Shown in pieces: positions 33,036-37,111 of a DNA stretch of 64,000 nucleotides (position 1 is its first letter; each line of letters begins with the position of its first letter). The stretch is from Promethearchaeota archaeon (GTDB lineage: Archaea; Asgardarchaeota; Lokiarchaeia; Sigyniarchaeales; SOKP01). The notes beneath the pieces were generated by a model. The model did no database searches. It saw only the letters and a program-made list of their open reading frames with translations, and was not told the DNA's origin. The DNA is taken from assembly GCA_016839555.1 (NCBI GenBank), contig JAEOUA010000008.1:262372-326371 (forward strand), given 5' to 3'. A program made the position numbers and the translations under genes.

Positions 33036-34298
33036 TTATTTCTTAAGGTTCAAAACTAAATTTTTAAGAACCTCAAATTTTTCTTCTGATGCCCAAATTA
33101 AATAAATAACATTGTCTACTACTATTGCGATTTCTTTAATAACTAAAATCCAATCCTCCCCAAGCTGTTTTGCTGTAGGACTTCCTTTCTTAAATTTTAT
33201 GAAAATATTTGCTCCATAATAATTCTGAATTTCTTCTTCCTCAAATTTAGTATATTCATCAAGATTTCCAATATCTTTTATTTTCTTCTTTTGCTTTAAA
33301 TTTTTTATCTGTTCTCTAATTTTATCATATACCAGAGCTAGTTTATCTTTAGCTCGAATTTCATCTGCAATTTTTTCTTCATACTCGAAAATAACGATAC
33401 CAAAATCTTTTTCAAGTCCCATAAAGCCTAATACGTCAATATCAAACACATCTTTTCCAAAAGATTGTATCTGATCATAATACTGGGATTTTTCCAATCC
33501 TTCAATAAAATATTCTTCTATTAAAAATTGAAAGCTTTTTAAAATTTTGATTTCTTCTTCTTTTTCTTCTATAATTTTATTGACTAATTTATTAATCGGA
33601 CGTGCAATATATATTTGTGTACCTTTAGGGGTTTTGGATCCCTTTTCAACCCAATTACTCTTTATAAGCCTATCTATTATACGATAAATGGTTGTACGCT
33701 TGATATCTAATTGTTTATTGAGATTTCCCACAATATTTCCGTGAGAACCTTTCTCTAATAAAGTTAGATAAACTTTACTTTCTTCCAGGGTTAATCCAAA
33801 TTTTTGAAGTCCTAATCGTCTTAAAATTCCCATGGTATCAAAGAGAAATTTTGGAGATATCTTTTGAAATTTCGTATCAGGTGAAAATATTATATTTGGG
33901 GCAATGAAAGGTTCACGAGAACTCATAGAACTTAAAGAGCGACCTAAAGCTGTGAAAATTTTCATTAACTCCATAAAAACTTCTCCTTCCTTACAGATTA
34001 TTTTACAAATTATCCCCATTCCCTGAACTCTATAACCAATAAGCCAATGATTTCTGCCTTTTGCTGCAAATCTTTCAGGCGTATTATTGAAAATTCTGTA
34101 ATTTCCTTCCCCAATAGATAATAATTTTGGCTCTTTTTTTCCCCATTTAGAAAATATTTCTCGTAATTCTTTTTCGTTCGTGATATCCCATGTCTTAGTT
34201 TGATATGAAATTTTGTTTTCATTCTCAAATATTGCAAGTGATATTATATTCGGGTTATCTTTTATTAAATCACTTATGACAGATTCATAACCCGTCAA
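33036..34298 (-). CDS. Profilin-like domain fused to a TrmB-type winged HTH transcription regulator
   Basis: N-terminal ~125 aa resemble Asgard profilins (LAIFENENKISYQTKTWDI, LSIGEGNYRIFNNTPER); central GLTLEESKVYLTLL...IKRTTIYRIIDRLIKSNWVEK...YIARP is a TrmB HTH. Confidence 0.75.
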   Translation of the reverse strand: MTGYESVISDLIKDNPNIISLAIFENENKISYQTKTWDITNEKELREIFSKWGKKEPKLLSIGEGNYRIFNNTPERFAAKGRNHWLIGYRVQGMGIICKIICKEGEVFMELMKIFTALGRSLSSMSSREPFIAPNIIFSPDTKFQKISPKFLFDTMGILRRLGLQKFGLTLEESKVYLTLLEKGSHGNIVGNLNKQLDIKRTTIYRIIDRLIKSNWVEKGSKTPKGTQIYIARPINKLVNKIIEEKEEEIKILKSFQFLIEEYFIEGLEKSQYYDQIQSFGKDVFDIDVLGFMGLEKDFGIVIFEYEEKIADEIRAKDKLALVYDKIREQIKNLKQKKKIKDIGNLDEYTKFEEEEIQNYYGANIFIKFKKGSPTAKQLGEDWILVIKEIAIVVDNVIYLIWASEEKFEVLKNLVLNLKK

Positions 34299-34377
34299 AG
34301 TATTAATCCCTTTTATTTTATTTTTGAGTATATAATTTAATTCTAGTAATTTTTTTTCACTTATAACATTCCTTTAT

Positions 34378-34572
34378 TTAATATTTTTCTTTAAGTTTTT
34401 TTTTTAATTCATCTAAAAGTGTTTTAAAATATTTTTTTGTTTTCATATCTAATAAATACGAAAAGGAATTATTCTGTTTAATAGAACTAAGTTCTCCTTT
34501 AAATTTTATTATTCCTTCGTCTAACACTATACAAGGAATTCCTTTTAGTTCTTTTATTATTAAAATGCTCAT
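34378..34572 (-). CDS. Small protein, paralog 2 (GIPCIVLDE motif)
   Basis: 64 aa; shares GIPCIVLDE and an L.ELKK helix with the adjacent ORF; 6-bp gap. Confidence 0.75.
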   Translation of the reverse strand: MSILIIKELKGIPCIVLDEGIIKFKGELSSIKQNNSFSYLLDMKTKKYFKTLLDELKKKLKEKY

Positions 34573-34578
34573 TCCCTC

Positions 34579-34782
34579 TTATTTCTCCTTATTATTATTA
34601 TCATCATCAAACCTTTTTTTCAACTCATTTAACACATCTTTTAAATTTTTTAAGTCATTTGAATTTTGAAAAAACATAAAATTATTTTTTTCCTTCCAAT
34701 CTTGAAATTTTGAAAATTCTTTATCTATTTCTTCATCTAAAACAATACACGGAATACCTTCTACATATTTTATTCTTATCAT
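34579..34782 (-). CDS. Small protein, paralog 1 (GIPCIVLDE motif)
   Basis: 67 aa; AGAGGT ribosome-binding site; paralogous to 34378-34572. Confidence 0.75.
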   Translation of the reverse strand: MIRIKYVEGIPCIVLDEEIDKEFSKFQDWKEKNNFMFFQNSNDLKNLKDVLNELKKRFDDDNNNKEK

Positions 34783-34900
34783 TTTAGACCTCTTTTTGGT
34801 ATTTATCCTACTTTCAGATTTTTTATTTTGAATTAATAGATCTTATAAAAAAAAAGAATTTTGAATTAGATTTTTTCCTTAAAAACATGTGCTAAAGCGC

Positions 34901-36040
34901 TTAGAAGCATCTGTGAATGACTTGCGGCCCCAATTCTTTATATTCGCGTCTGGTAATCCACATACGATGGAAAGTCTTTAAAGAACTCAAGATTGAACCG
35001 CCAATCCACACAGAATACATTCTTTCAGGTGGAGCGATGATTTTTACATCGACGGATTCTGGAATTTGCTCTCTTATTTCCTTAGTCAATCGCTCTTTAA
35101 TCCCAGGGAACATGGTAGAACCTCCAGATAACACAATATTACTGTAGAGATCTCTCCGTAAATCGACATCACACTCATCTATCGCATTTACCACTAAATC
35201 GTCCATCGGTGGTAATTCTTTCCCAATAACAGAAGGATTAAAGAGACACTCTGGGGCTAAAAATCGCTCAACTCCCACTTTAACGATCTCACCATCTGGA
35301 AGCATATATGCTTTTTCCATTCCCGCTACTTTTTTTGAAAGTATCATTTCTTTTTCAGGATCTATTGCGATATAGCAGAGTTTCTCCTTAATATCGCGAA
35401 CTATCTCGACTTCCGCCGTTGTGATCATTGGGATACCATTTTGCCTCAAAAGTCGCTTTAAATATTGTGTTACATCTCGTCCTGCAAGATCCACTCGTTC
35501 AATTGCATGGCCTAGAGCAAATCCTTCAAAGATCGGAACAATATGAGACACTCCATCCCCTATATCAATAACAACACCAGTTGCACGACCAGAAGCATAT
35601 AAAGAGAGAACCGCTTGGGTTGCAACATAAAGTGCGGGTACATTAAAGGTCTCAAACATAATTTCCGTCATTTTCTCTCTATTAAATCGAGGATTTAAAG
35701 GCGCTTCGGTTAATAGAATTGGATGCTCAGAAGGATCAACCCTTAAATCTGTATAGAAGGTATAATGCCAAATCCGCTCCATCGCAGGCCAATCGTTAAT
35801 AGTTCCATGAGTAATTGGGAAGTTTAAATGCATAACACCTTTTAATTTCATCGCATCATCTCCTATATACCATTCTCTGCCATAATCTTGTAACTCTGGC
35901 ATAATATTCCCATATTTAGGTCGCCCAGTAACTGTAGGAAACACGGAACGGGGTTGATCTTCACCAGCAAAACCGTTTTTAGTAATCCCTGTCCCATTGT
36001 CCAAAACAATTGCTTTATTAAAAATCTCATTTTCAGCCAT
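34901..36040 (-). CDS. Asgard actin (Lokiactin family)
   Basis: DNGTG, FAGED.PRSVFP, LLTEAPLNP, FETFNVPA, QAVLSLYASGR, GDGVSH, LAGRD, IVRDIKE, LPDG, NIVLSGGSTMFPG, SVWIGGSIL, C-terminal HRCF. Confidence 0.97.
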   Translation of the reverse strand: MAENEIFNKAIVLDNGTGITKNGFAGEDQPRSVFPTVTGRPKYGNIMPELQDYGREWYIGDDAMKLKGVMHLNFPITHGTINDWPAMERIWHYTFYTDLRVDPSEHPILLTEAPLNPRFNREKMTEIMFETFNVPALYVATQAVLSLYASGRATGVVIDIGDGVSHIVPIFEGFALGHAIERVDLAGRDVTQYLKRLLRQNGIPMITTAEVEIVRDIKEKLCYIAIDPEKEMILSKKVAGMEKAYMLPDGEIVKVGVERFLAPECLFNPSVIGKELPPMDDLVVNAIDECDVDLRRDLYSNIVLSGGSTMFPGIKERLTKEIREQIPESVDVKIIAPPERMYSVWIGGSILSSLKTFHRMWITRREYKELGPQVIHRCF

Positions 36041-36085
36041 TTTTATTCCTCCACATATTTTATTTTTTTATATTTGTTTTTTAAT

Positions 36086-36183
36086 ATAGAAATCTTATCG
36101 AATTTCTATTAAATTCTGTTTATATGGCAAACGGAGTATGGAATAGGACATAATTTTGCATTAATCTCTATTCTTTCCGTTTG
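36086..36183 (-). promoter_or_regulatory. Structured 5' leader of the actin gene (two hairpins)
   Basis: CAAACGGA(36128-36135)/TCCGTTTG(36176-36183) with inner GAATAG/CTATTC; ATAGAAAT(36086-36093)/ATTTCTAT(36102-36109). Confidence 0.45.
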
Positions 36184-36224
36184 TTTTTTTCTATTTTTTC
36201 TTATGAATATAATGAAATTGATCC

Positions 36225-36279
36225 TATTTAAATGTTGTCACGATATGGTGACAATATAGTCTGGATATGGTGACAATAT
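36225..36279 (-). promoter_or_regulatory. Actin promoter: TATA box plus tandem operator
   Basis: TTTAAATA on minus strand (36232-36225); palindrome TTGTCAC-N6-GTGACAA (36235-36254); perfect 16-bp direct repeat GATATGGTGACAATAT at 36242 and 36264. Confidence 0.65.
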
Positions 36280-36429: not shown

Positions 36430-36660
36430 ATGCCAACAATAAGTATAAGAATCGATCCTAAATTAAAAAGAAAGATGGATTCCTTTAAACATTTTAATTG
36501 GAGTGAAGTGATACGGCAAGCAATAAAAAATAAAATAAATGCTGAAAGAGAAAAAAATTTAGCAAAAGCGGTTCTACTTAATGAACAAGTTCGTAAGAAA
36601 GCACCTAAAGATTTTAACACTACGGATATAATTCGAATATTTCGGGAAGAACGCCATTAA
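36430..36660 (+). CDS. vapB: RHH-type antitoxin (VapB family)
   Basis: TISIRID..LK..M...NWSEVIRQAI; upstream of a PIN toxin. Confidence 0.85.
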   Translation: MPTISIRIDPKLKRKMDSFKHFNWSEVIRQAIKNKINAEREKNLAKAVLLNEQVRKKAPKDFNTTDIIRIFREERH

Positions 36661-36679
36661 ATGAAAGGAGAAGAAAAAA

Positions 36680-37111
36680 ATGGAAATTATCCAGATAGTT
36701 GTTGATGCTAATGTTATTACAAAATGGTTTATTGAAGAGAAAAACTCAGATAAGGCAAATAAAATAAAGGAGAAATATATTAATGGAGAAATTGATATAT
36801 TAGTATCACCATTATTATTTTTTGAAGTTCTTAATGCATTAAAATATAGTCAATTATTTGATAAAACAGAACTTAATTCTGTGGGAGAGAGCATAGAAAA
36901 TTATGGATTTACAATTGTTACTATTCAAAAGGAGATTCGCAAACAAATGATTCACATTGCTGTTAATCATGAATTGTCAATATATGACGCATCTTATGTA
37001 GCTTTGTGTTTAGAAAATAATTGCATCTTATATACAGCAGATAATAGGATTATTGAAAAGCTTCCAAATAAATTAAAACAATACGTAAAAAATTTGAGTG
37101 AATTTAAATAA
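36680..37111 (+). CDS. vapC: PIN-domain toxin (VapC)
   Basis: VVDANV, EVLNAL, LSIYDASYV, LYTAD. Confidence 0.9.
   Translation: MEIIQIVVDANVITKWFIEEKNSDKANKIKEKYINGEIDILVSPLLFFEVLNALKYSQLFDKTELNSVGESIENYGFTIVTIQKEIRKQMIHIAVNHELSIYDASYVALCLENNCILYTADNRIIEKLPNKLKQYVKNLSEFK

Follow-up and report, generated by a model that had tools for sequence, protein, structure and literature searches.

A profilin–TrmB fusion protein encoded beside a second lokiactin gene in Lokiarchaeia: a candidate actin-dependent regulator

A stretch of 64,000 nucleotides of DNA from Promethearchaeota archaeon (hereafter 'the window'; GCA_016839555.1, contig JAEOUA010000008.1, positions 262,372 to 326,371 of the forward strand) carries on its minus strand four co-oriented genes, which encode an actin, two small proteins and a regulator of 420 amino acids. 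This layout agrees with an initial annotation of the same DNA, which had described an actin gene, two paralogous micro-proteins and a regulator that joins a profilin-like domain to a TrmB helix-turn-helix. The cassette is a self-contained accessory unit of one family of Lokiarchaeia, composed of a promoter with its operator, a second lokiactin gene, an optional micro-protein gene and the gene of a one-component regulator, in which an Asgard-type profilin domain precedes a TrmB-type winged helix-turn-helix (wHTH). That this regulator binds the operator, binds actin and couples the two events, and thereby regulates the linked actin gene in an actin-dependent manner, is proposed here tentatively, as a possibility whose chances fall somewhat short of even.

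Distribution of the cassette and linkage of its genes

The full-length fusion protein is represented by approximately 110 clusters in the protein collection, including a protein from Loki's Castle (LCGC14), and by 46 species-representative genomes. An actin gene (77-86% identity) lies directly upstream of the fusion gene and on the same strand in 44 of the 45 species loci for which enough upstream sequence is available, among them Lokiarchaeum GC14_75-type contigs, and the synteny between actin and regulator, which the initial annotation had named as a check on its proposal, is thereby borne out. Within the class the fusion is found in 44 of 161 genomes, which belong to a single family and to 4 of its 13 genera, and inside those four genera the share of species that carry it ranges from roughly one third to two thirds. 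The cassette of one genus relative is situated between genes for a DNA glycosylase and a membrane protein, and those two genes are adjacent in another relative; the existence of the same flanks with or without the whole cassette indicates that it comes and goes as a unit. No remnant of the cassette was found in the 250-nucleotide intergenic gap of the cassette-free genus relative. In three species of one genus (G075, G082 and G114), the otherwise full-length regulator gene is interrupted by a single in-frame TAA.

The genes between actin and regulator are more variable. The two micro-proteins of the window are 37% identical and have a GIPCIVLD block in common, and both are present and paralogous as the initial annotation had stated; their inclusion as a pair in a conserved circuit did not survive comparison, since among the related loci two copies are found in this genome only, approximately half have one micro-protein gene, and the rest have none, with a gap of just 55-127 nucleotides between actin and regulator. 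The micro-proteins are an optional component of the circuit, not a constant one.

The linked actin and the housekeeping lokiactin

Two lokiactins, 83% identical to one another, are encoded in this genome, the second of them away from the cassette. The linked copy matches actins of solved structure with E values of 1e-154 to 4e-171, and 38 linked actin sequences show no variation at their catalytic and phosphate-binding positions, with the phosphate loops DNGTG and DIGDG, as well as Q142 and H166, invariant. The presence of a second lokiactin coincides with that of the fusion protein: among 41 genomes, all six fusion carriers have two lokiactins, and each of the 33 scorable non-carriers has one. 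In a tree of 73 sequences the unlinked lokiactins form one tight clade (support 100, mean identity 95%), and the linked lokiactins fall outside that clade and are far more divergent (mean identity 83%). The linked actin is a spare, faster-evolving second lokiactin, and not the housekeeping copy. Given this placement in the tree, the circuit concerns a spare actin isoform rather than 'the' actin gene, and the description of the fusion protein as the regulator of the organism's actin gene has to be narrowed: there is indeed an actin gene with an operator, but it is the accessory lokiactin, and no such operator site was found at the promoter of the housekeeping lokiactin.

The positions that separate linked from unlinked lokiactins are residues 48, 51, 54, 70, 76, 81, 141 and 167, the first six of which cluster in the D-loop and subdomain 2. 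These differences hint at other filament contacts or dynamics for the spare isoform. In one genus relative (G001; locus L028, 1583-2719) the linked actin gene is broken into two overlapping frames with stops beside an intact micro-protein gene and regulator gene; the unlinked actin gene of the same assembly, which comprises 700 contigs, also contains two stops, and an assembly error is as likely as decay.

The operator at the linked-actin promoter

Upstream of the linked actin lies the palindrome TTGTCAC-CATATC-GTGACAA, followed by CA and then by the TATA box TTTAAATA. The palindrome is matched once in the window, against 0.05 matches expected, and is single in the 3.74-Mb genome even when one mismatch or a variable spacer is allowed. 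The initial annotation had taken the operator to be a tandem of palindromes at the TATA box; the proximal palindrome, 2 nucleotides from the TATA box, fits that description, but the distal copy is incomplete, in that its second half-site is degenerate and keeps 4 of 7 positions.

Comparison of related loci demonstrated that the half-site GTGACAA is located 2-3 nucleotides before a near-invariant TTTAAATA in all 44 distinct promoters, that most of these promoters have the partner TTGTCAC at N6, that a perfect GTCAC-N5-7-GTGAC is present in 30 of the first 42 promoters, and that several species possess a second full palindrome or extra half-sites at a spacing of 10-22 nucleotides. The distance between the operator and the actin start codon ranges from 60 to 215 nucleotides, depending on the lineage; in the species with a short leader the operator-bearing promoter is plainly that of actin. 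A search of the 41 related genomes with the strict pattern of operator plus TATA box returned three genomes, all of them fusion carriers, with one occurrence each at the promoter of the linked actin, and the remaining three fusion carriers have versions with one mismatch. Conservation of the operator, which the initial annotation had raised as a check on its proposal, was thereby established, with the site tracking the regulator across these relatives. In one clade (L051, L054, L058, L065, L081 and L084), the operator reads TTGTCGC-N6-GCGACAA, with a third half-site, GTGACAA, adjoining the TATA box; the recognition helix of the regulator is unchanged in that clade.

The gene upstream of actin varies between genomes, and the palindrome and TATA box stay with actin. 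In the window this neighbour is a divergent pair of ribbon-helix-helix (RHH) and PIN genes (VapBC-like, 36430-37111), which lies beside the actin promoter and is not kept there in relatives. Assignment of the operator to the RHH/PIN pair was considered and rejected, because the upstream neighbour differs in every relative and the site remains with actin.

Further information on the regulator and its site was provided by the closest relatives of the fusion protein that have no profilin domain. These proteins, 293-311 amino acids in length, share the wHTH and the C-terminal domain, and are found only in genomes that are free of the fusion, twice with the same genes as neighbours. At their own promoters they have palindromes of the form TTGTCA-N7-8-TGACAA, located for the most part just downstream of the TATA box. 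It is notable that the operator of the fusion family has, by comparison, shifted to a position upstream of that box. The TrmB-family protein TrmBL1 recognises the similar site TATCAC-N5-GTGATA (PMC4706686). Taken together, the palindromes of the profilin-less relatives and the TrmBL1 site make binding of the operator by the regulator the natural reading, and the regulator very probably binds this palindrome.

A comparison of recognition helix and half-site for covariation was uninformative, as both are nearly invariant. The same near-invariance, which precludes a covariation test, leaves some room for the idea that the palindrome is the site of another factor and that its association with the fusion protein is positional only. 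Such an explanation is very improbable: the palindrome is unique in the genome and was detected solely in fusion carriers, similar palindromes lie at the genes of related TrmB proteins, and the motif is of a type that fits TrmB-family sites.

Domain structure of the regulator

The DNA-binding domain postulated in the initial annotation was readily identified: residues 164-225 match the TrmB wHTH of Pfam (PF01978) with an E value of 3.9e-11 and 43.1 bits, against a gathering cutoff of 25.6, and the domain is matched in all 68 aligned members of the regulator family. It is the sole Pfam match in the regulator. In an AlphaFold model a helix follows at residues 235-265, with low confidence from residue 252 onward, and TrmBL2 aligns with residues 145-267 at a Z score of 10.5 (VIA).

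The N-terminal region was compared with Asgard profilins both by sequence and by fold. A single-sequence phmmer search with residues 1-128 retrieved LokiProfilin1 (E 3.6e-5) and LokiProfilin2 (E 9.3e-5), and a profile of the 68-member family extended these matches to the Loki1 (E 6.6e-13), Loki2 (4.1e-12), Odin (1.4e-9) and Thor (5.5e-8) profilins, with no other notable match outside Asgard profilins. Residues 1-125 are modelled with a predicted local distance difference test (pLDDT) score of 80-90; the top five Foldseek matches of the domain are Loki and Odin profilins (template-modelling scores, by target, of 0.67-0.77), and LokiProfilin1 superimposes on it over 121 residues with a Z score of 15.7 and a root-mean-square deviation of 2.4 (VIA, an index-free comparison). 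Residues 1-128 are a genuine Asgard-type profilin domain, and not merely the profilin-like one of the initial annotation. The Pfam Profilin family is touched weakly by 5 of the 68 members (best E 0.0035), which accounts for public records in which these proteins are named just 'TrmB' or 'helix-turn-helix'.

The profilin domain is connected to the wHTH by a disordered linker of approximately 35 amino acids (residues 132-165). At the other end of the protein, the C-terminal domain (residues 290-420), when folded separately, is modelled with a pLDDT of 89 and has no convincing structural match, the best Z score being 5.8 and no Foldseek match reaching E <= 0.001; the sugar-binding domain of TrmB was absent from its lists of fold matches, and no Pfam family matches the regulator past the wHTH.

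A second architecture that contains a profilin domain was observed in most genomes of the family. These 'long profilins' of 204-285 amino acids combine a profilin domain, which matches Odin profilin with an E value of 9e-15, with a low-complexity linker and a conserved C-terminal helical module of approximately 45 residues (FL.WI...GL..F..YYLQ); examples are located at L023:1501-2358, on another contig of the genome that contains the window, and at L016:1279-1893. The long-profilin head is closer to the N-terminal domain of the regulator than short profilins are.

Predicted actin binding by the profilin domain

A complex of the linked actin with residues 1-130 of the regulator, a pairing that the initial annotation had singled out for modelling, was predicted in three runs with an ipSAE interface score of 0.83, whereas none of three controls scored above 0.01, although likeness to solved complexes may explain this pass. 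The mark applied to the score is reached by 58 of 80 solved complexes and by 2 of 110 mismatched pairs, and the runs displayed contact agreement of at least 90% with a partner pLDDT of at least 84. The predicted interface joins actin residues 148-178 and 356-379, in the cleft between subdomains 1 and 3, to two elements of the profilin domain, its central strands at residues 55-91 and its C-terminal helix, and corresponds to the canonical profilin-actin site at the barbed-end cleft. A segment of this interface, Y.I..NT.ER, is common to the N-terminal domain of the regulator and to Loki profilins. On the basis of homology and modelling, the N-terminal domain probably binds monomeric actin.

The profilin contact surface does not distinguish the two lokiactins, the interface residues of actin being essentially identical in the linked and unlinked copies. 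A sensor of this kind would consequently read total G-actin, and not its own product alone.

If the profilin domain is a working one, the regulator might act on actin dynamics directly, as a profilin for the spare actin that sequesters or delivers monomers, with the DNA site serving to titrate or autoregulate it. The genuine profilin domain with its canonical predicted interface is in keeping with this explanation, and some specialisation is plausible in a genome that keeps other profilins, the long form among them. A protein present at the level of a transcription factor and encoded behind an oligo-T tract could hardly buffer an abundant actin, however, and the invariant recognition helix and half-site point to DNA binding as a selected core function, so that a role of this sort is improbable.

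Proposed mechanism and points that weigh against it

In the mechanism proposed here, the regulator would dimerise through its TrmB-type helix, and its winged helices would bind TTGTCAC-N6-GTGACAA, overlapping the position of the transcription factor B recognition element (BRE) of the linked-actin promoter, a strong one of TATA type. Two flexibly tethered profilin domains would engage the barbed-end cleft of ATP-actin monomers, their loading with actin would alter DNA binding or contact with transcription factor B (TFB) and the TATA-binding protein (TBP), and the output of the spare actin gene would then follow the pool of free actin. Should both bindings take place, it is reasonably likely that they are coupled in this way.

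Analogy points to two possible directions of regulation. TrmB represses at the TM promoter by hindering TBP and TFB, and TrmBL1 activates from upstream positions and represses from downstream ones (PMC4706686). The overlap of the operator with the BRE suggests repression as by TrmB at the TM promoter, and repression by hindering TFB is slightly favoured, with activation from upstream of the TATA box as the alternative.

Several observations weigh against actin-dependent regulation by the fusion protein. In most of 18 loci examined, a conserved oligo-T tract of 8-14 residues is located 15-50 nucleotides past the actin stop codon; it makes the co-transcription of all four genes doubtful, and the regulator may escape autoregulation from the promoter of the linked actin. 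The tract may be a terminator or attenuator between the actin and regulator genes, and would fit high actin output with low read-through to the regulator, and equally a separate regulator promoter. At one locus (L044, 570-1929) the regulator is found with neither an adjacent actin gene nor the palindrome; this lone fusion gene has a divergent oxidoreductase-like gene 70 nucleotides upstream. The C-terminal domain is a second possible sensor within the regulator, and Roadblock/LC7 sensor domains are structurally near its profilin fold (Z 12.2, against 15.7 for profilin; VIA). The profilin domain of this genome departs from the family consensus at conserved positions 36, 71, 91, 93 and 94, and across the family conservation at the interface does not exceed that of the remaining positions of the domain (entropy 2.05 versus 1.83, p 0.34). 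Finally, because profilin-actin complexes of Loki and Odin have been solved (5yee, 5zzb and 5zza), the result of the complex modelling may reflect memory or likeness of those structures.

A rival explanation is a plain local regulator, which binds the palindrome and controls the spare actin gene, but whose profilin-derived domain no longer binds actin and is instead a module for dimerisation or for another ligand, like the GAF- and Roadblock-like heads of other wHTH regulators, with the signal arriving through that domain or through the C-terminal one. The operator evidence serves this explanation equally well; the profilin-less relatives already work with a wHTH and C-terminal domain; the interface residues of the profilin domain are without special conservation; and the fold matches also include Roadblock domains and CodY-like architectures. 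It does not readily explain the sequence homology of the N-terminal domain to actin-binding Loki and Odin profilins, the interface segment held in common with Loki profilins, the confident and canonical complex model with its clean controls, or the findings that the fusion is nearly always linked to an actin gene and that fusion and second lokiactin occur together without exception. A plain local regulator is accordingly considered unlikely, though more probable than the other rival explanations.

With these points weighed, the archaeal feedback loop of the initial annotation, in which monomeric actin is the ligand of the regulator of its own gene, is upheld in part. Linkage, operator conservation and the complex model speak for it; the actin concerned has proved to be an accessory one, the micro-proteins are optional and co-transcription is in doubt, and regulation by actin would be a reading of these features rather than an observed behaviour.

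Comparison with known systems

The regulator resembles TrmB and TrmBL1 of the Thermococcales (PF01978) in a winged helix of the N-terminal type that is followed by a long, putatively dimerising helix, and in a candidate palindromic site of the TCAC-N5/6-GTGA type at the BRE and TATA box. It differs from both in the 128-residue profilin domain and the disordered linker that precede the wHTH, and in a C-terminal domain that has no clear fold match; TrmBL1 furthermore controls a regulon, whereas the regulator described here is predicted to have one target site per genome. Stand-alone Asgard profilins of the Loki, Odin and Thor lineages (5yed, 5yee, 5zzb, 5zza and 7pbh) are alike in homology, in fold (Z 15.0-15.7) and in the predicted actin surface, but here the domain is fused to a DNA-binding regulator and is genetically tied to a second actin gene.

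In animals, the MRTF-SRF pathway employs a transcription component that binds G-actin, and the output of actin genes follows the monomer pool. The cassette would resemble that pathway in logic only, its response to actin being a proposed one, and the two systems are not homologous: MRTF carries RPEL motifs, shuttles to and from the nucleus and acts as a cofactor of SRF, whereas in the cassette the profilin domain is part of the DNA-binding protein, and the cell has no nucleus.

Type II plasmid partition loci (ParMRC and Alp7ACR) offer another comparison, as they have the same order of a cis-acting site within a promoter, an actin-family ATPase and a DNA-binding adaptor; in ParMRC the adaptor ParR engages the actin-like protein at the counterpart of the barbed-end cleft, and autorepresses its operon. 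They differ from the cassette in their iteron arrays, in place of one or two palindromes, in an adaptor that combines an RHH domain with a peptide in place of a wHTH and a profilin domain, and in that the cassette is chromosomal and contains an actin of eukaryotic type. The resemblance raises the idea that the DNA-bound regulator is a tether, either instead of a sensor or in addition to one, and links its place on the chromosome with the barbed ends of actin filaments in the manner of ParR, parC and ParM, with two profilin domains that would capture or feed the barbed ends of the spare actin and so position or move DNA in the Asgard cell. Beyond gene order and the placement of the operator in the promoter, this would agree with the binding of ParR to a cleft equivalent to the one predicted here, with the pairs of palindromes or runs of half-sites at 10-22-nucleotide spacing in several species, and with the long flexible linker of the regulator. 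The cassette has one or two operator palindromes per promoter and no iteron array, however; it resides on chromosomal contigs of up to 1.28 Mb; its absence from more than half of the species of the carrier genera would be odd for a segregation function; and a profilin that caps the barbed face would, until released, keep further subunits from being added. A tethering role is for these reasons an improbable explanation.

Asgard actin regulation has been discussed at the protein level only, through profilins and gelsolins, and lokiactin has been treated as a single conserved gene (PMC9834061, PMC13716822). A search of full-text literature, with subscription-only papers outside its range, found neither a profilin-TrmB fusion nor a regulated second lokiactin described. 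The cassette adds to this picture a second lokiactin isoform, which evolves faster and is present in roughly one in three species of a single family, and a transcription factor that carries a predicted actin-binding domain. If actin-dependent regulation is real, the cassette would be the first instance in prokaryotes of a gene regulator whose ligand is a cytoskeletal monomer, and would answer, independently and more simply, a problem for which animals use MRTF-SRF. Even if the protein is a plain regulator, the closest relatives of eukaryotes would still offer a defined pair of operator and regulator, together with an actin isoform under regulation.

Coordinates and additional features of the locus

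The positions of the features discussed above are collected in Table 1.

Table 1. Features of the actin-regulator cassette, in window coordinates
Feature	Position	Strand	Remarks
Operator palindrome TTGTCAC-CATATC-GTGACAA (N6 spacer)	36235..36254	-	Ends 2 nt before TATA box, at BRE position
Distal direct repeat (16 nt) of left part of operator	36264..36279	-	22 nt upstream (start to start)
TATA box TTTAAATA of linked-actin promoter	36225..36232	-	Near-invariant over 44 aligned promoters
Leader hairpin, ACGGA...TCCGT core	36128..36183	-	Inside ~160-nt 5' leader
GGAGG Shine-Dalgarno of linked actin	36048-36052	-	
Linked (second) lokiactin, 379 aa	34901..36040	-	Pfam Actin, E 2.9e-129
T9 tract past actin stop codon	34847..34855	-	Terminator- or attenuator-like signal
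Micro-protein 1, 67 aa	34579..34782	-	IDGIPCI hairpin motif and C-terminal LxELKKKF helix
Micro-protein 2, 64 aa	34378..34572	-	Paralogue of micro-protein 1
Regulator gene, 420 aa	33036..34298	-	Profilin, TrmB wHTH and C-terminal domain
Regulator profilin domain, aa 1-128	33915..34298	-	Homology, fold and complex model
Regulator TrmB-type winged helix, aa 164-232	33603..33809	-	Recognition helix KRTTIYRIIDRL; long helix aa 235-265 next
Regulator C-terminal alpha/beta domain, aa 290-420	33036..33431	-	Common to profilin-less TrmB relatives

The TATA box of this genome is located approximately 190 nucleotides upstream of the actin ATG, which implies a long leader. This leader folds with a z score of -5.4, and the sequence of its hairpin is kept in genus relatives. 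A leader of 110-160 nucleotides with a long hairpin (z -1.5 to -5.4; 36086-36183 in the window) is present in many lineages, and the species with short leaders are without it. In ten species (L033, L035, L041, L042, L045, L049, L056, L059, L062 and L069), a closing stem that was set by hand has 80% of its cells paired, versus 30-59% when the stem is slid along the sequence, and 4 of its 8 pairs covary. No Rfam family matches the leader here or in eight related loci, and RNAalifold returned no or almost no consensus on the leader alignments. The possibility that the leader is a miniature inverted-repeat transposable element or other repeat was rejected for this genome, in which it is single-copy, its other matches being short, A-rich chance ones.

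A profile search recovered 68 representatives of the micro-protein family, all of them small stand-alone proteins, along with two weak outliers in unrelated, unannotated contexts. The micro-proteins match no Pfam family and have no usable match in the Atlas, and a word-based search retrieved three close relatives only. Their C-terminal helix might be read as WH2-like.

In at least 15 species (L045, L048-L050, L052, L056, L061, L062, L064, L066, L067, L069, L070, L072 and L074), no ATG, GTG or TTG is present in frame between the stop codon upstream of the linked actin and its essential DNGTG loop. The position taken by ATG or TTG elsewhere is occupied in these species by ATT, 6-8 nucleotides past a GGTGG Shine-Dalgarno sequence, and ATT appears to serve as the start codon of their linked actin. 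Gene callers truncate the linked actin as a result of such starts, as exemplified by a 333-residue call in L033.

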